DNA of 45,506 nucleotides from a virus (Duplodnaviria > Heunggongvirae > Uroviricota > Caudoviricetes), in the IMG/VR virus record IMGVR_UViG_2563366923_000008, positions 1 through 45,506 of that record. The stretch is one strand, 5' to 3'. The notes beneath the pieces were generated by a model, which saw only the letters and a program-made list of their open reading frames with translations, did not search any database and was not told the DNA's origin. A program made the translations under genes and the position numbers. This document shows, in pieces, positions 7,032 through 26,466 of the stretch (its first letter is position 1; every line of letters starts with the position of its first letter).

Positions 7032-7101
7032 AATACTCCTGGTATTATTTTATATCAATACCGCCAGTATTATTATGTTTAATAAAAATACTAAAGGTAT
7101 G
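7032..7101. promoter_or_regulatory. OL operator cluster (three sites, consensus AATAC-N5-GTATT) with the leftward PL promoter
   Basis: AATACtcctgGTATT (7032-7046), AATACcgccaGTATT (7057-7071), AATACtaaagGTATg (7087-7101); same palindrome as the OR sites next to cI. Confidence 0.6.
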
Positions 7102-9145: not shown

Positions 9146-9856
9146 TCACACAAGTCTCAACTTAGTTTCTACAGCCACACCAATGATCCGGCAATTCCCA
9201 TTGATGGGAACCAATGGCCATTGAGGGTTTAAGCCCTTCAGGTACTTCTGGCCCCCATCAATAATCAGCTTTTTGAATGTCGCTTCGTTTGATTCGGATA
9301 GCTTTGCGATCACAAGGCTGCCATTTACTGGCTCTCGGCCGGTATCAAACAAAACGTAGGTACCCTCTGGTATGCTGAGCCCGACCGGGGCAGTCATGGA
9401 TTCCCCCTCGACCAACAACCAGAACGCATCCCCCTGGATGTGAGCGTCTGATTCTAGCCATAGATCGATATCTTTAAGTGCATACGGCTCGCACGCTTCC
9501 GACCAATGCCCAGCCTGAATCTTGCTTAATACAGGGTATTTAATGCCTGGGGTGTACTGGCCTGCATACTTGGCATTCGATGTAGCGGAAGCACTCATTG
9601 CAGATATTTCTTTCGCAAGGCTGGGGCTAAAATCAGAGACATCCACCTGGAGGGCTCTGGCAAAAACAGCAGCCACGGCAGCATTAAGGGCATTCCTGCC
9701 ATTCAAGTAATGCCCAACGCCCCCCTGAGATATGTCTAGCATGTCAGCTATTGATTGCTGTGTTATCCCAAGCTCTTTTTTCTTGGCTTCATAGAGGGCT
9801 TTCAGCCTTTCTGCGTCAGCGATCTGAGCCGATGTCAGTGTCTTTTTCTTTTCCAT
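9146..9856 (-). CDS. cI: CI repressor (Cro/C1 HTH plus LexA-like S24 autopeptidase domain)
   Basis: Near-colinear with lambda CI from memory (LKALYEAKKKELG...SMTAP...FKKLI...LNPQWP...); ATG at 9856 has no SD, consistent with a leaderless PRM transcript; track start at 9862 is TTG. Confidence 0.9.
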   Translation of the reverse strand: MEKKKTLTSAQIADAERLKALYEAKKKELGITQQSIADMLDISQGGVGHYLNGRNALNAAVAAVFARALQVDVSDFSPSLAKEISAMSASATSNAKYAGQYTPGIKYPVLSKIQAGHWSEACEPYALKDIDLWLESDAHIQGDAFWLLVEGESMTAPVGLSIPEGTYVLFDTGREPVNGSLVIAKLSESNEATFKKLIIDGGQKYLKGLNPQWPLVPINGNCRIIGVAVETKLRLV

Positions 9857-9890
9857 TTTCAAATAGTAATACCAATGTTCTTATTTTAAA

Positions 9891-9929
9891 AATACTCGCG
9901 GTATTGCAATGTTTAATACTTGTGGTATT
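9891..9929. promoter_or_regulatory. OR operators (two clear sites) with divergent PRM/PR
   Basis: AATACtcgcgGTATT (9891-9905) and AATACttgtgGTATT (9915-9929) between cI and cro; a third degenerate site may lie at about 9868-9885. Confidence 0.65.
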
Positions 9930-16647: not shown

Positions 16648-16784
16648 GCCGTGACGTTATCGAACGCATCCGCGACCGCTGGCAAAAGCTTCGCCTCCTG
16701 CGTAGCCGCGGCACCGTGCTGGTCGACTACAAAATATTACGCAATTTCGTCCGTATCTATAAGCGCCTGGGAGAAGCAGCATGA
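16644..16784 (+). CDS. Small protein (46 aa), YlcG-like position
   Basis: ATGA overlaps at both ends (rusA stop and Q start); [46 protein letters not shown]. Confidence 0.35.
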
Positions 16785-17470
16785 CAGCTCAATACTTGGA
16801 ATTTGTTCGCCAGCAGCTGATAGTGGCCACCGCCGATCTGAGTGGTGCGACGAAAGGGCAACTGGTAGCTTTTGCAGAGAACGCGCAATTTACCGCTACG
16901 GCGCGCAGCCGTGGCCGGAAGAAGGTGTATAGCGAGGTGAAGCAAAAAATGGTTAACCCGGATGGACCGCCGATGAGCGGCAGCCAGTCCCGCGCTAAGG
17001 GTTCCTCAATCGCTCTCGTTCTGCCCGTTGAATACTCGACAGCCAGCTGGCGCCGCGCCCTCCTGTCGCTGGAAGACCACCAGAAATCCTGGTTGCTGTG
17101 GAACTACAGCGACAATATCCGCTTTGAGTATCAGGTAGCGATAACACAGTGGGCATGGGAAGAATTCCGTGATCAACTCGGCGCTAAGAAAGTGGCCGGC
17201 AAGACGATGGAGCGGCTGAAGAAACTGATATGGCTGGCGGCACAGGACGTGAAAGCAGAGCTGGCGGGTAAGTATGTATATCAGCACCAGGACCTTGCAG
17301 CCCTGTGTGGCGTTAAGCCTGATAACTGGTGCCATAACTACGCTGATTACTGGCGGGCTATGTGCGCCATTTTTAAGCGGCTTGATAGCGACTCTCTTCT
17401 CTGTGCTGTGAGAACACGATCACAACAAAAAGCGACTTTTTCGCAGCAGGGTCTTGCAAAAGTCAATTAA
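16781..17470 (+). CDS. Putative late antiterminator Q
   Basis: 229 aa directly upstream of the PR'/tR' region and lysis cassette; call is mainly positional. Confidence 0.6.
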   Translation: MTAQYLEFVRQQLIVATADLSGATKGQLVAFAENAQFTATARSRGRKKVYSEVKQKMVNPDGPPMSGSQSRAKGSSIALVLPVEYSTASWRRALLSLEDHQKSWLLWNYSDNIRFEYQVAITQWAWEEFRDQLGAKKVAGKTMERLKKLIWLAAQDVKAELAGKYVYQHQDLAALCGVKPDNWCHNYADYWRAMCAIFKRLDSDSLLCAVRTRSQQKATFSQQGLAKVN

Positions 17471-18332: not shown

Positions 18333-18610
18333 ATGACCAGAATGAGCACCATTTACAGCAGACTTTCATATGGAACAGGAACCACGCTGACCGCTGCGGT
18401 GTATCAGCGAAGGCATATGCCGAAACAGCTAAAACAGCAAAAGAGGTGTCCTGGATGTTGGCCGACAGAATTGCAGGGTTAAGCCTGAGCGACTGGGCAA
18501 TTATTGTCGGTATCGCATGCACTGTTATTACCTGTGCAGTGAACTGGTATTTCCGCTGGAAAGAACGGGAGGATCGGCGCAATGGCTATGCCACCAAAGC
18601 TGAAGAATAG
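18333..18610 (+). pseudogene. Pinholin (S21-like class II holin) interrupted by a 47-nt insertion, leaving two small ORFs (18333..18482 and 18455..18610)
   Basis: Frame A gives MTRMSTIYSRLSYGTGTTLTAAVY... (SAR/TMD1-like); frame B gives [42 protein letters not shown]... (TMD2 plus basic tail); deleting 18405-18451 restores one S21-like frame. Confidence 0.5.
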
Positions 18611-19154
18611 CGTTATTGCAGCGATACCCGCTGGCGCTATTGCTATCGCTGCGGCGTTGATTACTGGCCCAACGGGTAATGATGGCCTTGAAGGTGTACG
18701 CTATCAGCCTTATCGGGATGTTGTTGGAGTGTGGACTGTATGCTGGGGCCATACTGGTAAAGATATTATCCTCGGCAAGACCTACACCAAAGCAGAGTGC
18801 CAGGCGCTGCTGGATAAAGACCTGAATATTGTCGCCCGACAGATTAACCCATATATCAATGCTCCGATCCCCGAAACGATGAGAGGGGCGCTGTACTCAT
18901 TTGCGTATAACGTAGGCGCGGGAAACTTCAAAACCTCCACACTGTTACGAAAAATCAACCAGGGTGATTCGAAAGGCGCATGCGAACAACTGCGGCGCTG
19001 GATCTATGCTGGTGACAAACAGTGGAAGGGTTTAATCACGAGGCGTGAGATTGAGCGTGAAGTTTGCCTGTGGGCAGAGAAACCTCAGGTTCTGGGGGAT
19101 GGACTCGGGCCGCTTAACCCTGGCATTCCGGTATCAGTTCCGGGGGTATTCTGA
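18582..19154 (+). CDS. SAR endolysin (GH24 lysozyme with N-terminal signal-anchor-release domain)
   Basis: N-terminal [26 protein letters not shown] then [19 protein letters not shown]...[13 protein letters not shown]; near-colinear with phage 21 R from memory; start may be ATG 18588. Confidence 0.85.
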
Positions 19155-19696
19155 TGAAACCCAGAAAAATTACGATTGTTGCGGTTCTGCTGGTGGCTGT
19201 CGTAATCATTATTGCAGTGCTTAGCGTATTACTGGTTCGTAGCCGCTCAGCTCTTGAAACAGAACAGAGTGAGAATCGGGTATTACGTAATGATAACGCG
19301 CTGCAGGCGACGGTGATAACTACACAGGCTTTCAACTTCAATCGGTTTAACCAGATAGCAGAGAACGCCAACCGCCTTAACTCGCTGATCGATGCCGGTA
19401 CTGAGAAAACTGTCATCGAATACCGGGAGATTCTCCGACGTGAAAAGACCTGTGATCTGCCTGTTCCTGCTGATGTCGCTGGTGGGCTGCTCAAATACGC
19501 GTACCGTTTACGTGCCAGCGCAATGCACCCCGATACCGGGAACACTAACGCAACCGATGATAGTACCGCTGCCGCCAGCTCAATGACGTATTGCCAGGCC
19601 GTCCTCTGGATTGAACCTTTGCTGGCAACGATAGAAAAGGGTAATGGCAATTTTTCCGGAATACGGGAAATAGAGAACGTAAGAGCCTCGCAATAG
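19154..19696 (+). CDS. Rz-like i-spanin
   Basis: 180 aa with N-terminal TM helix (IVAVLLVAVVIIIAVLSVLLV) and coiled-coil periplasmic domain; embedded +1-frame lipoprotein ORF. Confidence 0.75.
   Translation: MKPRKITIVAVLLVAVVIIIAVLSVLLVRSRSALETEQSENRVLRNDNALQATVITTQAFNFNRFNQIAENANRLNSLIDAGTEKTVIEYREILRREKTCDLPVPADVAGGLLKYAYRLRASAMHPDTGNTNATDDSTAAASSMTYCQAVLWIEPLLATIEKGNGNFSGIREIENVRASQ
19392..19586 (+). CDS. Rz1-like o-spanin lipoprotein embedded in Rz
   Basis: Lipobox LVGC followed by a Pro-rich mature peptide CSNTRTVYVPAQCTPIPGTLTQPMIVPLPPAQ; start uncertain (ATG 19392 or GTG 19440). Confidence 0.6.
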   Translation: MPVLRKLSSNTGRFSDVKRPVICLFLLMSLVGCSNTRTVYVPAQCTPIPGTLTQPMIVPLPPAQ

Positions 19697-19726
19697 CGGG
19701 GTTCTTTAACAATAAGAGAGGGAGTA

Positions 19727-20020
19727 ATGGAAAAAGAACAAAACGGCGCTGCAATCTTTCCTGTAGCAAAAGACTTTAAATTCTGTCTTGGGCAACTAGT
19801 GAACTTGCGCATTAGTGATGAGTTCGGCGAGGTACAGGCCCGCTCCCAGCATGTGACAGGTGAGAACCAGTACTTTATTTACTACCAGGCCGCCAATAAA
19901 TGTGCGACTGAGCGCTGGTATTCCGAATCGCAACTGGTAGCGGTGGAAGATGACCGTTCTCCGGGTATGCCTGTCTTTGGTTGTGTTGAGTTGCCGGAAG
20001 GTGCGGCGGTTGAAGAGTAA
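19727..20020 (+). CDS. Hypothetical protein
   Basis: 97 aa, good RBS. Confidence 0.5.
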   Translation: MEKEQNGAAIFPVAKDFKFCLGQLVNLRISDEFGEVQARSQHVTGENQYFIYYQAANKCATERWYSESQLVAVEDDRSPGMPVFGCVELPEGAAVEE

Positions 20021-20148
20021 GGCATTACAGCAGGCATTCACTGAGTGCCTGCGACAAAGCTAAATGGCATCAAGCATGCGATGATGATTGATTAATAATT
20101 GAGCTATGCATGGTATAATAAGCCACATTCATTGAAAGGTTAACCACC

Positions 20149-20313
20149 ATGTCATTTTTCGATTATGCAATGCAGCGTGTTGGGCTTGCAGCCAATACGA
20201 CTGTCATGTGCCCGATATGCGGACATAAATCCACACACTCGACCACGAAAGTACGCCAACAACAGGCGTTACTTTGCCCTAAATGTAAATCTCTGTTTGT
20301 CATTCACAGGTAG
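20149..20313 (+). CDS. Small zinc-ribbon protein (54 aa), stand-alone moron
   Basis: MSFFDYAMQRVGLAANTTVMCPICGHKSTHSTTKVRQQQALLCPKCKSLFVIHR; own extended -10 promoter (TGgTATAAT 20111-20119) and a perfect terminator. Confidence 0.5.
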   Translation: MSFFDYAMQRVGLAANTTVMCPICGHKSTHSTTKVRQQQALLCPKCKSLFVIHR

Positions 20314-20338
20314 TGGGTCGCGATACAAATAACCCCAG

Positions 20339-20362
20339 GCCTCGCAATTGCGAGGCTTTTTT
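20339..20362 (+). terminator. Rho-independent terminator of the zinc-ribbon moron
   Basis: GCCTCGCAATTGCGAGGC followed by TTTTTT. Confidence 0.6.
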
Positions 20363-20505
20363 ATACCAGCAGTAAACGCGCATCTCACGCGCATATTAAC
20401 GAGAGCCTTTCAGTAAGCGAGCCTGAGAAATGCCGTTATAGGTGGCGACCTCTCTCGGGCGGCTTTTCTGTGAGACAGGCTCACTTTCTAAAAGGTAAAG
20501 ACGCT

Positions 20506-21003
20506 ATGAAAGCAATCACGCTTTTTAATACACCGATCCGTGTTGATGAATCAGGAATGATCTGCCTCACTGATATGTGGAAAGCCAGTGGTAAAAGTGA
20601 ATCTGAATCTCCGTACCACTACCTGCGAAACAAGCAGACCAAAGAGTTCTTAGCCGAGCTGGAGAAAAACCACGAATCTGTGGTTTTTACTGAGCGCGGT
20701 GTACACGGTGGAACATATGGCGGGAAGTTTGTTGCTTACGATTATGCGGCTTGGTTAAACCCCGGGTTCAAGTACGCGGCCTATAAAGTCCTCGATGACT
20801 ACTTCACTGGAGAACTTCAGCATCGCAACAGCTTAAGTGCGCAGCTCAACATGAAATGTCATGAGTTTGACCAGAAGAAAGACATGGCGAGCTTCTGCGG
20901 ACAAGGGCTGGCGGCATGGCGCTATACGAAGCCAGTGTTGGTCGCTGAGATTAACTCCCTGGCTAACCAGCTGCAGATTACGATCCCCGGGCTTCCGGGA
21001 TGA
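20506..21003 (+). CDS. KilA-N domain protein (antirepressor-like)
   Basis: MKAITLFNTPIRVDESGMICLTDMWKASGKSESESPYHYLRNKQTKEFLAELEK fits the KilA-N pattern; track start 20470 is GTG, ATG at 20506 has a better RBS. Confidence 0.7.
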   Translation: MKAITLFNTPIRVDESGMICLTDMWKASGKSESESPYHYLRNKQTKEFLAELEKNHESVVFTERGVHGGTYGGKFVAYDYAAWLNPGFKYAAYKVLDDYFTGELQHRNSLSAQLNMKCHEFDQKKDMASFCGQGLAAWRYTKPVLVAEINSLANQLQITIPGLPG

Positions 21004-21257
21004 GTGATCGTGTCATTGAATGCGCCTCCAGAGCGGGGCGCGACTTCTCAGAGTTCATGAAAGGCGAGAAGGGCATGATGGAAGCATTGGCCTCGGTGGA
21101 TGAGTTTGGCGAGCAGCTGCGCCTCAACGGCTGTGTCAATCATCACTTTGTTAGCTACATGATGCGGAACTCGATCATGCAGGCATTCATGGACATGGCA
21201 AAAGCCGAGAGGAAAGAAGAGCGCCGGCGTAAGCGAGCGGAAGCAAAAGCGAAGTAG
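21000..21257 (+). CDS. Hypothetical protein translationally coupled to the KilA-N gene
   Basis: ATGA overlap; 85 aa with basic Lys/Arg/Glu-rich C-terminus. Confidence 0.5.
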   Translation: MSDRVIECASRAGRDFSEFMKGEKGMMEALASVDEFGEQLRLNGCVNHHFVSYMMRNSIMQAFMDMAKAERKEERRRKRAEAKAK

Positions 21258-21391
21258 CCATTACAAAGCTCATCTGCGGGTGGGCTTGATAATGGGGATG
21301 AATATCGCAATTTTTATTGTGGTTGACATAATTAGCTGATTTGCAATGATTATTTTGCTGTTGGTATAATTAATCCTCTACTACGAGAGGG

Positions 21392-21676
21392 ATGACTATG
21401 CTGACAATAATTTTGTTTGGTGCTGGCTGGAAAGGTGATGTTTGGGCTCTCGAGAGCTACAGTCCCGTTATTAAGGCTCCTGATCGGACATTTAGGCTTC
21501 TGAAAAGCTCTGGGGGTGCCCCGATCTTCGAGGATGCTGAGTTTGATGTTTTCGAATATCAGCTTGGTGATGAAATTTATCTGGTTGGCTGTCATGGGAA
21601 TAAGCCTAGTGACGATGTGATTATGTCACACATCCAGCATGGTGACCCTAAGCCGAAACCATACAAAACACTGTAA
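21392..21676 (+). CDS. Hypothetical protein (94 aa), stand-alone moron
   Basis: Own promoter TTGCAA-18 nt-TGgTATAAT (21341-21370), SD, and terminator. Confidence 0.55.
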   Translation: MTMLTIILFGAGWKGDVWALESYSPVIKAPDRTFRLLKSSGGAPIFEDAEFDVFEYQLGDEIYLVGCHGNKPSDDVIMSHIQHGDPKPKPYKTL

Positions 21677-21696
21677 CCGCCTCCGGGCGGTTTTTT
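21676..21696 (+). terminator. Rho-independent terminator of the 94-aa moron
   Basis: CCGCC-tccg-GGCGG followed by TTTTTT. Confidence 0.55.
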
Positions 21697-21786
21697 ATTG
21701 CCATCACCGAACAGGCATTACAGCAGGCATTCCCTGAGTGTCTGCGATAATGCTTTATTATCATTGTTAACGACGGGGTAAAAATC

Positions 21787-21984
21787 ATGAAAATTTTAGT
21801 TGAACACAACTCCAAAGTTATCTGGATGCGTGATAATGAAACATCTGAAGGTGTGGCCTGCAGGAGTTATATTAAGGACGGCGTACAGCAAAAGATTATT
21901 GCCGCCCTTGAGGATGCCTTAGCTCAGGCAAAGGGTGAGTTATTATGCTGGAATGACTCTGATGCTGTGAGTGACATTTCCTGA
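21787..21984 (+). CDS. Hypothetical small protein
   Basis: 65 aa ORF with plausible RBS. Confidence 0.4.
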   Translation: MKILVEHNSKVIWMRDNETSEGVACRSYIKDGVQQKIIAALEDALAQAKGELLCWNDSDAVSDIS

Positions 21985-22023
21985 GCCACCACCTAAATCA
22001 ATCGTAACGTTCCAGTATCCCAT

Positions 22024-22278
22024 ATGAGGCGCAACCAACCGGGTCGGAAGTCTCTCGAAGAAACCACCACCACCATGATGATGAAAACCCCGGTTATTTT
22101 TATAACTATTGAAGTTACTGTCGGTAGTGAGAAGGATGTTGCACTGGTGCGAGCAGTCAACAACAACGACATCACCTGCATTCAGGTGCATTCGTTTGTG
22201 AAGAAATTGCATAAGTCTCCTTATCAAGAGGCAATCAGCACTCCTCTCAAGGCTGGTACGCCAACGTCCCACCGCTGA
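22024..22278 (+). CDS. Hypothetical small protein
   Basis: 84 aa ORF; start uncertain. Confidence 0.3.
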   Translation: MRRNQPGRKSLEETTTTMMMKTPVIFITIEVTVGSEKDVALVRAVNNNDITCIQVHSFVKKLHKSPYQEAISTPLKAGTPTSHR

Positions 22279-22380
22279 CGGGCTGAGCCATTACCTTACC
22301 CAGACTCAACGATAAGTAACATCCTGATATTCAGACAGTAACTGTAATCGATAATGCTGAAGAATAGGCAGTAAATACAG

Positions 22381-23028
22381 GTGACTGATATGGCAACACT
22401 GAAGGATTTATCAAACCAGTTAAAGCAACTGCAAAAGCAAATCCCGTTTGCCACAGCTCAGGCGATGACAAAAGTTGTACGCCAGATTGAGTTGGCTCAG
22501 AAGACGGCATTCGAACGACATCTGGAGAGCCCCACGCCGTTTACCGTTAAATCAGTTGGTTCGGTGGCGGCAAGAAAGAACAATCTGACCGCAAAGGTTT
22601 TTGTCCGCGATACCGCTGCTGGTTATCTGGAACCATTCGAGTTTGGCGGAGAGCACAAGCTCAATAGCCAGGCTCTATTAAATCCCAAGAACGTTAAGCT
22701 AAACAAATACGGCAACATGCCGCGTAATAAGCTCTCACAGCTTAAAACAAAGGAAAATGTATTCGTAGGTGAGGTTGATGGCGTTAACGCTGTCTGGCAG
22801 CGTAAGAAGCCGATGAAAGCTAAGAAGCGACGGGCCAAACGTTCCGCTAACGGGACGCGAAGACCGAAACGCAAACAGCGTTCTCCAAAGCTTTTGATCC
22901 GGTTTGGTGATGCGCTACCTGTGACTCCAGTGCTGGGGTATATGGATAGGTCCCATACCATGGCGAACGCACTGCTACCGTCTGCTTTAAATCAGGCGAT
23001 AGCAGAAGCCATCAGGACGGCAAAATAA
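22381..23028 (+). CDS. Hypothetical protein with very basic C-terminal region
   Basis: 215 aa; KKPMKAKKRRAKRSANGTRRPKRKQRSPK tract suggests nucleic-acid binding. Confidence 0.5.
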   Translation: MTDMATLKDLSNQLKQLQKQIPFATAQAMTKVVRQIELAQKTAFERHLESPTPFTVKSVGSVAARKNNLTAKVFVRDTAAGYLEPFEFGGEHKLNSQALLNPKNVKLNKYGNMPRNKLSQLKTKENVFVGEVDGVNAVWQRKKPMKAKKRRAKRSANGTRRPKRKQRSPKLLIRFGDALPVTPVLGYMDRSHTMANALLPSALNQAIAEAIRTAK

Positions 23029-23038
23029 AAGCAGTAAC

Positions 23039-23542
23039 TTATAAGTTAATTTCGCAAGCTTTTATGAAGCTGTTTACTGCAGTTGTCGATCCAGAAACAT
23101 TGGCTGACATGGAATGCTGGTTTCCGCCATCCTTTGTTTGCACACCAACTAACACTTTGGATTTCGCCCCCTGAAGCTGCTTAAGCACTGTTTTTAGTTG
23201 GTCCGCGTCATCCGATTGAATCTGGAGGCTCTGAACATTACGTCTTGAAAGGGTAGCATCGAGCTTCACTGCGGTATTCCCGTCGACCTTCATTATCAGG
23301 TCCATTGGTACCTCTGATAGTGATTCGGTGCTTTTATCCATTTCAACGTATGCCGCCGATAGCTTTTCTTTAGTGCAGTCAAACACAATGGCGCCATTGT
23401 CGGATGAAACCTCGCCAAGCATCATTGCTTTCTTACCACCAGAGAAAAGGTCATCTTCAGTATTAGTTACCCACTGGGCATGAGCAATTGGTGATGCCAG
23501 CACTGCGGCTACGAAAGTTATTTTGATTATATTGTTACCCAT
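23039..23542 (-). CDS. Secreted or periplasmic protein of unknown function (opposite-strand moron)
   Basis: ATG at 23542 with AAGGAG SD at 6-nt spacing; signal peptide MGNNIIKITFVAAVLASPIAHA|QW; AT-rich; only minus-strand gene in the late region before the fibre switch. Confidence 0.6.
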   Translation of the reverse strand: MGNNIIKITFVAAVLASPIAHAQWVTNTEDDLFSGGKKAMMLGEVSSDNGAIVFDCTKEKLSAAYVEMDKSTESLSEVPMDLIMKVDGNTAVKLDATLSRRNVQSLQIQSDDADQLKTVLKQLQGAKSKVLVGVQTKDGGNQHSMSANVSGSTTAVNSFIKACEINL

Positions 23543-23685
23543 TACATTCTCCTTGTATTGAATAGGAATAATCATAGTCGGAGCGAATGGTCGAAGCCAT
23601 AAAAAAATGGGTCCTTCCTGAGACTTTTGTAAGGTACGGGCATTGCGCGCCGCGGTGTTTTCCTAGCTACAACTTTCAGATTTGT

Positions 23686-23832
23686 GTCCCATGTCCCACC
23701 TCTGGCGATCATTACGGACACCTCGCCAGCTCTGGCTATTCCAGTTTATTCCAGTGGGACATTCTGGTGGGACATGGCAAAAATGTCCCAGACGAATGTC
23801 CCACCCCAGAAAATGTCCCAGGTGATGTCCCA
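23686..23832. repeat. Array of ATGTCCCA / TGGGACAT repeats immediately upstream of and overlapping the terS start (candidate terminase-binding or cos/pac-associated sites)
   Basis: GTCCCA at 23686 and 23693; TGGGACAT at 23755 and 23768; ATGTCCCA at 23783, 23796, 23813 and 23825, the last overlapping the terS ATG. Confidence 0.6.
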
Positions 23833-24401
23833 TGACCACGATGAACCAGAGTCAGTACGCACAACATTCAGGTGTGGATCGCAAAACAATTGGCCGGTGG
23901 ATTAAAGCCGGGCGCTTCATTGTGATGGACGGAGACCTGATTGACGTAGAGGCCAGCGATGCGGCATTGAAGAAAAACCGCGATGGCAAAGACCCGCGTG
24001 CCTCGAACGCGAAGAAAAAGAAAACTCCCGTCGTTAGCGATAACGATGATGACGGTGATGAAATCAATAAAACTGTCCGCCAGATAATGCTCACTGAAGG
24101 GGCAGATCTTTCGAGAGAGGAAGCGGGACGTATCCGCGAGAATTACATGGCCCTACAGGCAAAGCTGCAGTATGAAAAAGACAGCGGCCAGCTTATTGAG
24201 CTGACAGCAGCCGAGGAGGTTTTATTCAACGCCTTTCGCCAACAGCGTGATGCCTGGCTTAACTGGCCGTCCAGGGTGGCGCCGCTAATGGCTGCTGATC
24301 TGGATGTACCGGCGGACAGGATGACAGAGGTGCTGATTGAACATGTCCACAAACACATCTCAGTCCTCGGAGAGCCAGAGTTTAACCCGGCAGAAGATTG
24401 A
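23832..24401 (+). CDS. Terminase small subunit (N-terminal HTH)
   Basis: 189 aa; N-terminal QYAQHSGVDRKTIGRWIKAG HTH; acidic linker; directly upstream of the large terminase. Confidence 0.7.
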   Translation: MTTMNQSQYAQHSGVDRKTIGRWIKAGRFIVMDGDLIDVEASDAALKKNRDGKDPRASNAKKKKTPVVSDNDDDGDEINKTVRQIMLTEGADLSREEAGRIRENYMALQAKLQYEKDSGQLIELTAAEEVLFNAFRQQRDAWLNWPSRVAPLMAADLDVPADRMTEVLIEHVHKHISVLGEPEFNPAED

Positions 24402-26466
24402 GCGTCTTGAATTAAGCGTCCGCAAAGGCTGGACACCCCCGCCGCGTATCAGTGTGCCGCAGTGGGCAGATGACTATCGTAAGCTGGCAAAAGAGGCTGG
24501 GAGCACTTCGGGAAACTGGGAAACATCGACGGTAGAAATTGCCCGCGGACCGATGCTTGCCGCGACGGAGTCCGGGGTTCATATCATCACTGTAATGTGC
24601 TGTACCCAGTTGATGAAGACAGCACTGCTGGAAAACCTTTTTGGCTATTTTGCCCACCTCGATCCTTGTCCGATACTGCTGCTGCAGCCGAAAGAAGAAG
24701 CCGCTGAACAGTTTTCGAAAGAGCGTATTAGCCCGCTGGTAAGGGTGACGCCGGTACTGCGTAAAATCATCGGTGATTCGAAACAGAAAAGCTCGAAAGA
24801 AACCATTCTTTACAAGGCATTCACTGGCGGATTTCTGGCGCTGGCGGGTGCTGGTAGCCCTGATAACCTTGCGCGTCGTCCGATTCGTGTCCTGCTGGCG
24901 GATGAAGTGGACAAGTACCCGATAACCCGCGAAGGCGATCCAATTGCGCTGGCCGAAGAGCGTACAGCGACATTTGGCCTGACCTGGCTGTCTGTACGCG
25001 CCTGTTCGCCGACGGTGGAGGATGAGAGCCGCATTGCTGACAGCTACGCCGACTCCGATCAGCGCCGGGCATCTGTGGTTTGCCCGCACTGTGGCCACCG
25101 CCAGTTCCCCGACTTTTTCAAACACGTTCAGTGGCCGAAAGAGGGAGATAAACACCTGACTAAATCGGCGATGCTCTATTGCGAATGCTGTGGTAGTGGC
25201 TGGTCCGAAGGACAGCGCCTCAGAGCTCTGCACACTATTCGATGGCATCAGACGCGCCCATTTGAGTGCTGCGGGGAGCGGCACTCACCGCTGATGGATT
25301 ATGACCTTGCCTGGCGGGCGGCAGACGAGGGCAGCGTTGAAAAGGTCTGGCAATGGTCAGAGTCGGAACGGCATGCGGTCTATCGCGCAATCTGCCCCTC
25401 CTGTGGAAAGGAGGCAGTCGATAACCACCACGCGGGGTACCAGGCATCCAAGCTTTTCAGCCCCTGGCAAAAAGATAAGCCGTCGGATATTGCGAAAAAA
25501 TATATCGATGCGAAGGGCGATCCGGATAAGGAACAGGCGTGGTGGAATACCCAGATGGGGCTTCCGCACCGACCTAATCATGGGAAACAGCTCCCTGTTG
25601 ATGTTCTGCTGGCGCGCCGGGAAATATTTCCGGCCGTCGTTCCGGACGGGGTGGCATTGTTAACAGCTGGAGTTGATACCCAGGACGATCGCTTCGAAAT
25701 TACGATCACCGGCTGGGGGAGAGATGAAGAATCGTGGTCGGTCGCGCATGACGTTATTTATGGTGACCTTGAGACGGAAGAACCCTGGAAGCGACTGGAT
25801 GCATACCTGAAACAGATCTGGCGACGTGGTGACGGGCGCGGCCTGAATATCATGGCAACGTGCATGGACTCCGGCGGCCACCATACGCAGAAGGTATACG
25901 AATTCGCCAAAGAGCGTCTTGGCCGTCGTGTCTGGGCAATTAAGGGGGAGTCTGCACAGGGAGGCAAACGCAATCCTGTCTGGCCGACCAAACGACCATC
26001 ATCGAAAAGCAAAGCCAGTTTCCGCCCTGTCATTCTGGGGGTTAACTCAGCGAAAGACGTGATACGCGGTCGCCTGCATCTTGAGCCACCCAAACCTGGC
26101 GCCGCCGCTGCGGGTTATATGCATTTTCCTGACGATCGCGATCTCGGGTACTTCAATCAGCTGCTGGCGGAGCGACTGGTTTACAAAGTCATTTCCGGGC
26201 AGCGGTACAGTATCTGGGAAGCAATACCAGGACGAGCTAACGAAGCGCTTGACTGCCTCGTTTACAGCTATGCCGCGCTGTGCGGTCTCAAACATATGGG
26301 GTTAAAACTCAACGTCCGGGCCGCCAACCTCGAAGCCGATCCGGATAAGTTCCTGCCAGCGCCAGTTGGACAGGAAGAAAAAATCAATTACGAGCTGCCG
26401 GGTGCGGTTATTGAAGAACCAGCGCCGGTCAAACGTAAGCGAATATCGCAACTCCTGCCGAAATAA
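24343..26466 (+). CDS. Terminase large subunit (lambda gpA family)
   Basis: About 700 aa with ATPase region (VLLADEVDKYP) and C-terminal nuclease; track start 24337 is TTG, ATG at 24343; overlaps terS. Confidence 0.85.
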   Translation: MSTNTSQSSESQSLTRQKIERLELSVRKGWTPPPRISVPQWADDYRKLAKEAGSTSGNWETSTVEIARGPMLAATESGVHIITVMCCTQLMKTALLENLFGYFAHLDPCPILLLQPKEEAAEQFSKERISPLVRVTPVLRKIIGDSKQKSSKETILYKAFTGGFLALAGAGSPDNLARRPIRVLLADEVDKYPITREGDPIALAEERTATFGLTWLSVRACSPTVEDESRIADSYADSDQRRASVVCPHCGHRQFPDFFKHVQWPKEGDKHLTKSAMLYCECCGSGWSEGQRLRALHTIRWHQTRPFECCGERHSPLMDYDLAWRAADEGSVEKVWQWSESERHAVYRAICPSCGKEAVDNHHAGYQASKLFSPWQKDKPSDIAKKYIDAKGDPDKEQAWWNTQMGLPHRPNHGKQLPVDVLLARREIFPAVVPDGVALLTAGVDTQDDRFEITITGWGRDEESWSVAHDVIYGDLETEEPWKRLDAYLKQIWRRGDGRGLNIMATCMDSGGHHTQKVYEFAKERLGRRVWAIKGESAQGGKRNPVWPTKRPSSKSKASFRPVILGVNSAKDVIRGRLHLEPPKPGAAAAGYMHFPDDRDLGYFNQLLAERLVYKVISGQRYSIWEAIPGRANEALDCLVYSYAALCGLKHMGLKLNVRAANLEADPDKFLPAPVGQEEKINYELPGAVIEEPAPVKRKRISQLLPK

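Follow-up and report, generated by a model that had tools for sequence, protein, structure and literature searches.

The window analysed here comprises the 45,506 nucleotides (nt) of the IMG/VR virus record IMGVR_UViG_2563366923_000008 and is a complete lambdoid prophage of Escherichia coli. Between its lysis and terminase genes it carries a unit of about 450 bp with the gene for a protein of 92 amino acids (aa). This unit is probably a moron that is horizontally exchanged in a recombination-prone slot, is transcribed from a host-driven promoter and is translationally insulated from late read-through, with a product that, by guess, takes part in conflict. The bounds of the slot (a left hairpin and a right terminator), the conservation of the -10 element and of the terminator, the constraint on the coding sequence and the complementarity between promoter and translation start are established by sequence comparison, and the conflict function is the weakest step of this explanation. 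An initial annotation had already read the unit as an autonomous moron. This reading is supported by the presence, absence or replacement of the unit among relatives, its movement as a 450-bp block, the conserved -10 element and terminator, the lower GC content and purifying selection on the gene. The elements of the unit are arranged as follows.

21258 to 21295, plus strand: left boundary element, a two-tier hairpin immediately behind the stop codon of the 85-aa gene upstream
21295 to 21707, plus strand: cassette body, which is present, missing or exchanged as one block
21321 to 21331, plus strand: box GGTTGACATAA, containing a perfect TTGACA (21323-21328)
21341 to 21346, plus strand: -35 hexamer TTGCAA, with 4 of 6 matches, 18 nt from the -10 hexamer
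21362 to 21370, plus strand: extended -10 element TGGTATAAT, with TATAAT at 21365-21370, preceded by TG
21359 to 21406, plus strand: fold-back hairpin, with a 5' arm at 21359-21379 (-10 region and first leader bases) and a 3' arm at 21386-21406 (Shine-Dalgarno (SD) sequence, AUG and codons 2-3)
21386 to 21391, plus strand: SD sequence AGAGGG, 6 nt before the ATG at 21398; all homologs have a purine-rich GGAG/GAGG here
21398 to 21676, plus strand: gene of the 92-aa protein, which is acidic, mainly beta-strand and predicted to be cytoplasmic (PHROG 17438)
21675 to 21698, plus strand: intrinsic terminator, a 7-bp stem overlapping the stop codon, with the loop UCCG and T6

In megablast comparisons the block 21255/21258-21707 travels alone. 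It extends from the upstream stop codon, or from just after it, to just past the terminator (about 450 bp), and the right end of identity is position 21707. Over 412 nt, the copies of the cassette in 11 complete E. coli genomes show 99.5-100% identity, and the exact 92-aa protein is encoded on at least 401 contigs. An identical block is found in at least three packaging and head backgrounds (P22-portal/Sf6-terminase, Terminase_2/portal_3 and lambda gpA/gpW), in which the Q and lysis genes differ as well. Its position is constant across these prophages, between the lysis genes (often with KilA-N or Rha) and terS. The same upstream gene and left hairpin also occur in phage mEp235, which has no cassette; here the similarity ends directly after CTTGATAATG and other DNA comes next. 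In strain MDK9L1 an unrelated 99-aa gene is located between the same left hairpin and the same terminator, followed by the same downstream bases. In strain ET846 (locus L003 5028-5869) a 204-nt deletion, corresponding to window positions 21559-21762, took the 3' part of the gene together with the terminator, and two frameshifted 73-aa alleles in the protein collection (P0016 and P0017) are decayed copies. Only about 24 of 5426 complete E. coli genomes contain a member of the family, each as one copy and all on the chromosome. Searches with tblastn found no member in 50,697 sequenced phage isolates, so that the family is seen only in prophages, and none in 72,556 plasmids. The GC content around the cassette is 0.44-0.45 (21200-21800), compared with 0.54-0.56 just upstream (20750-21200) and 0.51-0.56 in the terminase genes.

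The hallmarks of morons are an extra segment that is present or absent among relatives, an own promoter, an own terminator, a deviant base composition and expression from the repressed prophage (PMC3594210; Juhala et al. 2000). Presence and absence, a promoter at the sequence level, a terminator and a deviant GC content are all found for the present unit, and its assignment as a new, uncharacterised member of this well-known class is supported. The unit shares several traits with the classical lambdoid morons (HK97 gene 15, lambda bor and lom): an additional gene comes with own promoter, own terminator and deviant GC content, occurs in some phages but not in close relatives, and lies inside or beside late genes. 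Its position resembles that of lambda bor, which we take to lie just downstream of the lysis genes. In contrast to the classical examples, the present protein is unrelated to gp15, Bor, Lom and Cor; it lacks both a signal peptide and a lipobox, and a cytoplasmic location is predicted for it. A further difference is the leader, which is predicted to block translation of read-through RNA. To our knowledge a leader of this kind has not been described for morons, and literature searches on the accession, on morons in this slot and on read-through insulation of morons returned nothing specific.

The left boundary element is composed of an outer stem CCAUUA/UAAUGG and an inner stem AAGCUCAUC/GGUGGGCUU. 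Since a U tract is missing, it is not a canonical terminator. The inner stem has a folding energy of -12.8 kcal/mol (z -4.0), and the whole hairpin reaches -16 to -24 kcal/mol in 20 distinct loci (e.g. L016 2560-2597 and L017 2111-2150). Across these loci the outer stem is constant (CCAUU./.AAUGG) and the inner stem is found in four covarying versions: AAGCUCAUC/GGUGGGCUU, AAGCGUCC/GGGCGCUU, GAAGCUCUUC/GAGGGGCUUC and GGCGCA/UGCGCC. The hairpin is also present in the cassette-less mEp235 and, with different cargo, in MDK9L1. We regard it as part of the slot and not of the cargo; it could act as a 3' stabiliser of mRNA, as a processing site or as a recombination linker.

At the right boundary the hairpin AACCGCC-TCCG-GGCGGTT (21675-21692) contains 5 G-C pairs and is followed by a T run to 21696. 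It folds with -12.8 kcal/mol (z -3.3) on the plus strand and with -11.4 kcal/mol on the minus strand and may, according to these calculations, work in both directions. The terminator and the last 15 nt of the gene are 82-100% identical where the proteins are only about 50% identical. The same terminator is shared by the unrelated cargo gene in MDK9L1, and in the distant 91-aa homolog another, equivalent hairpin with a T run stands in its place. The CCGCC/GGCGG plus T6 terminator of the initial annotation is present as a 7-bp GC-rich hairpin with T6, and it is conserved.

The proposed TTGCAA-18 nt-TGgTATAAT promoter was likewise found in the sequence, at 21341-21370, where 10 of 12 hexamer positions agree with the consensus and the TG of an extended -10 is added. 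Every leader that bears TATAAT has it 27-29 nt before the ATG; two leaders have TAAAAT. The TG upstream of the -10 is kept in all distinct leaders but two. The -35 hexamer keeps its TTG in relatives (variants TTGTAA, TTGAAA, TTGCAT and TTGAAT), and in the MFD/MFE clade it is deleted along with 12 nt. The coding sequences of the family diverge to 34-50% identity while the -10 element and the terminator are nearly invariant. TATAAT and the terminator persist even where protein identity has dropped to 48-55% and dS is saturated. As transcription starts usually lie 7-10 nt after the -10, the start is predicted at about 21377-21380.

Operators of the CI type (AATAC-N5-GTATT) occur in the window only at 7032-7101 and 9891-9929, with 5 matches versus 0.7 expected; three of these repressor operators belong to the left operator and at least two to the right one. 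No CI operator or conserved palindrome was found near the promoter of the 92-aa gene, which therefore presumably is a constitutive promoter of the host polymerase. For this reason, and because the leader would favour transcripts from the own promoter, the 92-aa protein is expected to be made in the lysogen and probably also right after DNA entry.

All distinct leaders share an identical TTGACATAA upstream of the promoter; only two of them depart from the full box GGTTGACATAA. This box is located 36 nt upstream of the -10 hexamer (24 nt in the deletion clade), which is no working spacing for a -35 element. The consensus scan pairs its TTGACA with a poor -10, AATGAT, that is not conserved in relatives. 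A Fur-box-like stretch (TTGCAATGATTATTTT), recognised by eye, is not conserved in relatives either and was dropped. No Rfam family was found in 19000-24500.

In the leader, the promoter is complementary to the translation start. RNA of 21357-21410 folds into one long interrupted hairpin of -18.8 kcal/mol (z -5.3), in which UGUUGGUAUAAUUAAUCCUCU pairs with AGAGGGAUGACUAUGCUGACA. No stable structure (0 kcal/mol) results when the RNA begins 7 nt after the -10, where the own start is predicted. Because the 5' arm includes the -10 hexamer itself, a transcript from the own promoter would lack this arm. A CCTCT/AGAGG 'terminator' that the terminator scan placed on the minus strand was rejected, as it is the inner part of the fold-back hairpin. 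For 14 distinct leaders of the MLT clade, the read-through RNA folds with -14 to -22 kcal/mol (z -2.5 to -5.9), and in these leaders the mean unpaired probability of positions -13 to +3 is 0.14-0.30 in read-through RNA versus 0.46-0.72 in RNA with the own start. The pairs between anti-SD and SD vary among the leaders (CCUCU/AGAGG, CUCUCUU/AAGAGGG, CCCUCU/AGAGGG and CUCGU/ACGAG). When 19 pairs were modelled on the alignment of the 14 leaders, 87.6% of the cells were paired, compared with 38-63% in slid controls. Three pairs are changed on both sides, including U-A to C-G and A-U to C-G, which gives 6 such cells, a number that none of 500 shuffles attained. For comparison within the window, 30 other gene starts were folded in the same frame (-41 to +15); their z values range from -2.5 to +1.2, and that of the 92-aa gene is -5.2.

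The arrangement resembles the fold-back inhibition of IS10/Tn10 transposase translation, reportedly described by Davis, Simons and Kleckner in 1985. In both systems the sequence just upstream of the own start is complementary to the ribosome-binding region, and for the MLT clade the complementarity includes the ribosome-binding site as well as the start codon. As in IS10, only transcripts entering from outside are predicted here to form the hairpin and to be untranslatable, and own transcripts to be open. The systems differ in the gene concerned, a transposase there and a phage cargo gene here, and in the predicted 5' arm, which in the present unit consists of the -10 hexamer itself and the first leader bases. 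Retroregulation of lambda int by sib is similar in that the RNA structure is completed only in antiterminated read-through, so that the promoter decides on expression, as predicted here. In contrast, sib is located 3' of int and acts by RNase III cleavage and decay, while a 5' location and occlusion of SD and AUG are proposed for the present leader. RNase III cleavage is also possible at the present hairpin. The putative fold-back is a modestly novel addition to the reading of the unit as a moron.

On this basis the following mechanism is proposed. Host sigma-70 polymerase would use the promoter independently of phage factors, both in the lysogen and on DNA that enters the cell, and start at about 21377-21380. 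The own transcript would be a monocistronic RNA of about 320 nt that ends at the terminator and has an open SD. After induction, Q-modified polymerase would read through the upstream hairpins and terminators, and the unit would join the late RNA. This RNA would carry the 5' arm, whose pairing with SD, AUG and codons 2-3 would give a hairpin of about 19 bp. With SD and AUG hidden, ribosomes could not load and little protein would be made late. We thus propose, by analogy to IS10, a fold-back insulation from late read-through in which only own-promoter transcripts are translatable. A wider claim, namely that late-operon morons can carry a built-in translational insulator with the -10 region as anti-SD/anti-AUG arm and that the product founds a new fold family in conflict, is doubtful as a whole.

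The SD sequence AGAGGG was found at 21386-21391, as the initial annotation had it. The 94-aa open reading frame (ORF) described there exists (21392-21676) and is a real gene, but its length has to be corrected to 92 aa with the start at ATG 21398. The upstream ATG at 21392 follows the SD without a gap, and homologs have GTG in its place or lack it (GGGGTGATTATG, GGGGTTAATATG). The homologs have 91-92 aa, except for two 94-aa calls with extra upstream codons and the two frameshifted 73-aa alleles. Since the homologs have this length and ATG 21392 is not conserved, the start is assigned to ATG 21398, six nt after GAGGG. Pairwise dN/dS values are 0.15-0.38 at dS values from 0.4 to saturation. Non-conservation of the ORF had been named as a finding that would refute the moron reading; the length of 91-92 aa, the start and the SD are kept, and the gene is under purifying selection.

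At 90% identity the family falls into about 33 clusters, which come exclusively from Enterobacteriaceae (Escherichia, Salmonella, Leclercia, Enterobacter, Kluyvera, Atlantibacter and Cronobacter). An exhaustive profile search of 1.84 billion representatives yielded only 4 real relatives and one spurious repeat protein and did not widen the family. A scan of genome contigs with the protein alignment gave no relative, and a DNA-pattern scan of metagenomes was too loose, with only 3 real family members among 120 loci. The most distant relatives (L008 5001-5276; 91 aa, about 35% identity) reside in another type of element and have their own, different terminator; their site in L008 follows a gene for a Zn-ribbon primase/Toprim/DUF927 protein and precedes structural genes.

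A homology and structure search had been suggested as a check, and its outcome is an orphan family with no functional or fold match. The protein matches phrog_17438 over its full length (E 2e-36) and belongs to the same family as RefSeq WP_001548473.1; the former entry has no assigned function and the latter no supported one. Pfam, NCBIfam (E up to 1) and PADLOC-DB 2.0 (E up to 1) gave no match, and searches of PDB sequences with the single sequence and with the profile gave nothing below E 0.67. The AlphaFold models are of mediocre quality (pLDDT 65 and 72) and differ from each other in residues 8-21; fold searches returned no credible match.

Conserved residues are F7, G10 and G13 within an F-G-x-G-x-x-G motif (residues 7-13; window 21398-21436) that follows a hydrophobic N-terminal strand, a core V-x-E-(F/Y)-Q ... 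I-Y-L-(I/V)-G-x-x-G-x-x-P and a basic tail P-K-P-Y-K-T-L. Signal peptide and membrane segments are lacking; position 3 is Asp or Glu in homologs, and the net charge of the protein is about -4 by our own count. We considered the F-G-x-G-x-x-G motif as a Rossmann or dinucleotide-binding loop and rejected this, since one clade has Asp in place of the first Gly, the length of the protein does not suffice and neither folds nor profiles support it. Some records (RefSeq WP_001548473.1 in NZ_AP045775.1 and NZ_CP085637.1, and GenBank MCV5591556.1 and MCV5720426.1) name the protein 'PP2C family serine/threonine-protein phosphatase' or 'serine/threonine-protein phosphatase'. This identity was rejected as well. 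A PP2C domain has about 230 or more residues with metal-binding aspartates, compared with 92 aa here, and profile, PDB and fold searches gave no support. Profiles of PP2C, SpoIIE and other phosphatases had no match at E up to 10 in 28 family members. The PP2C name is likely an annotation error and may propagate.

Several observations weigh against the proposed promoter and fold-back. In a consensus scan of 7 kb, 8 promoter-like sites were counted versus 8.1 expected from dinucleotide shuffles; the same scan gave 9 terminator-like sites versus 7.6 expected, and TGNTATAAT occurs 3 times in the window versus about 1 expected. Promoter and terminator rise above chance because they are conserved in relatives, not by the consensus match alone. 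The MFD/MFE clade has no fold-back structure (z about 0), and a 15th leader of the MLT clade, which has a GTG start, is weaker (-12.6 kcal/mol, z -1.5). RNAalifold detected no consensus structure for the leader, because the pairing register differs between lineages; leader folds were judged per sequence and by explicit counting of pairs instead. Moreover, the structure tested on the alignment comes from one of its sequences, and the leader sequences are related.

The chance-level count of promoter-like sites would also suit an ordinary accessory gene of the late operon that is expressed mainly by Q-antiterminated lytic transcription, with promoter- and terminator-like sequences conserved as recombination linkers. 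The gene has the orientation of the late operon and follows Q (16781-17470) and the lysis genes. As would suit linkers, the hairpin and terminator flanks recur around other cargo and in cassette-less phages. However, the distance from TATAAT to ATG is fixed even where the surrounding leader sequence has diverged, and the translation start would be buried in exactly the read-through transcripts. Late expression therefore makes little sense, and we consider this account improbable. The hairpin could also be the 5' untranslated region (UTR) of the gene itself, transcribed from a start further upstream, e.g. near 21357 if the TTGACA at 21323 is used. It would then be a switch opened by temperature, by a trans-acting RNA or by a protein, or an RNase III processing site, and not an insulator. 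This TTGACA is invariant in every leader and is paired with TGcAATGAT at 16 nt in the scan, and an interrupted helix of about 19 bp suits RNase III, which cuts such helices, as in lambda sib. On the other hand, the -10 partner is poorly conserved (AATGGT, ATTGGT, ATAGCT), and the deletion clade keeps TTGACA while the spacing shifts by 12 nt. With -14 to -22 kcal/mol the helix is also far more stable than typical RNA thermometers. A 5' UTR of this kind is therefore equally hard to credit, and a host-driven promoter with an insulating fold-back remains the preferred explanation.

A 'hypothetical' annotation and the missing domain match could suggest that the ORF is no real gene and that the DNA is non-coding or codes on the other strand (81-aa ORF 21350-21595, minus strand). 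The dN/dS values over deeply diverged copies refute this, the conserved length, start and SD also speak against it, and it can practically be dismissed. The product is predicted to be a small, acidic, soluble, non-enzymatic protein without known relatives. A partner-binding protein in conflict between phages or between phage and host, i.e. in exclusion or defence, is a tentative assignment that may well be wrong. Counter-defence ranks below it and is unlikely. In that case the protein would serve the phage itself, from a constitutive promoter right after DNA injection, and would not be a lysogenic-conversion factor. Many anti-defence proteins are small, acidic orphans, as is this one. A promoter independent of phage regulators would fire early, and silencing in late RNA fits an early role. 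In a Leclercia prophage the immediate upstream neighbour of the homolog is a gene of the Acb2/Tad1-hairpin family (anti-CBASS/anti-Thoeris sponge-like; L010 4634-4870), with the same left hairpin after it, so that the slot behind the lysis genes can hold counter-defence genes. Against counter-defence, the protein has no likeness to any known anti-defence family or fold, the family has 0 members among the phage isolates and is seen only in prophages, and an intact gene is kept in at least one prophage with degraded-looking lysis genes (L023). The remaining probability falls to another role in host fitness or to a function outside these categories.

The surroundings of the unit are those of a lambdoid prophage, whose landmarks also include a lambda-type portal and a contractile tail sheath. 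The E. coli assembly GCA_000351325.1 matches an 8.3-kb stretch around the cassette at 100% identity.

1 to 1194: integrase
9146 to 9862, minus strand: CI-like S24 repressor
16781 to 17470: Q antiterminator
18582 to 19154: lysozyme
24337 to 26466: gpA-type terminase

The cassette is part of an accessory stretch of about 4 kb (19.7-23.8 kb) with the lysis genes on one side and the small terminase subunit on the other. The GC content of the whole stretch is 0.43-0.48, below that of both sides. The initial annotation had placed the unit within the late region. This holds insofar as the unit has the orientation of the late operon and lies downstream of Q and the lysis genes; its actual location is the lysis-to-terminase accessory stretch, not among the structural genes. 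The stretch codes for a 97-aa protein, a YnfU-like zinc-ribbon protein with its own TGGTATAAT and terminator, a KilA-N/ORF11CD3 protein, the 85-aa protein (phrog_875) directly upstream of the unit, the 92-aa protein, a 65-aa protein (phrog_21096), a convergent DUF1883 protein, a 215-aa protein and a convergent secreted protein of 178 aa.

Three of these neighbours deserve comment. The YnfU-like gene forms a second self-contained unit (20092-20358) with TTAATA-16-TGGTATAAT, a 54-aa zinc-ribbon ORF (20149-20313) and a strong terminator (20337-20358), and probably is the first moron of the initial annotation. Its -10 flank GCAUGGU is complementary to the start-codon region ACCAUGU; the fold is not significant (z -1.1). 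The adjoining cassette at 21708-22300 contains the 65-aa ORF (21787-21984), convergent with the gene of the DUF1883 protein (21943-22272, minus strand), the 3' end of which overlaps it. This pair is found without an intact 92-aa gene in strain ET846 and together with the 92-aa gene in the prophage loci L024 and L027, and thus is a separate mobile unit. Finally, the convergent 178-aa protein (phrog_19473; 23039-23575, minus strand), encoded just upstream of the small terminase subunit, has a clear signal peptide and is likely another candidate for lysogenic conversion.

Morons that encode a hypothetical protein number in the thousands, and a single one carries little weight by itself. The wider value of the locus is a clean natural cargo slot in lambdoid prophages, with a left hairpin, a right terminator and interchangeable small genes between them, which can usefully serve as a landmark when accessory, defence or counter-defence genes are to be mined. 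If the fold-back is true, it would explain lysogen-specific expression inside a very strongly transcribed late operon, and it could serve as a sequence signature that distinguishes lysogen-expressed cargo from late genes.

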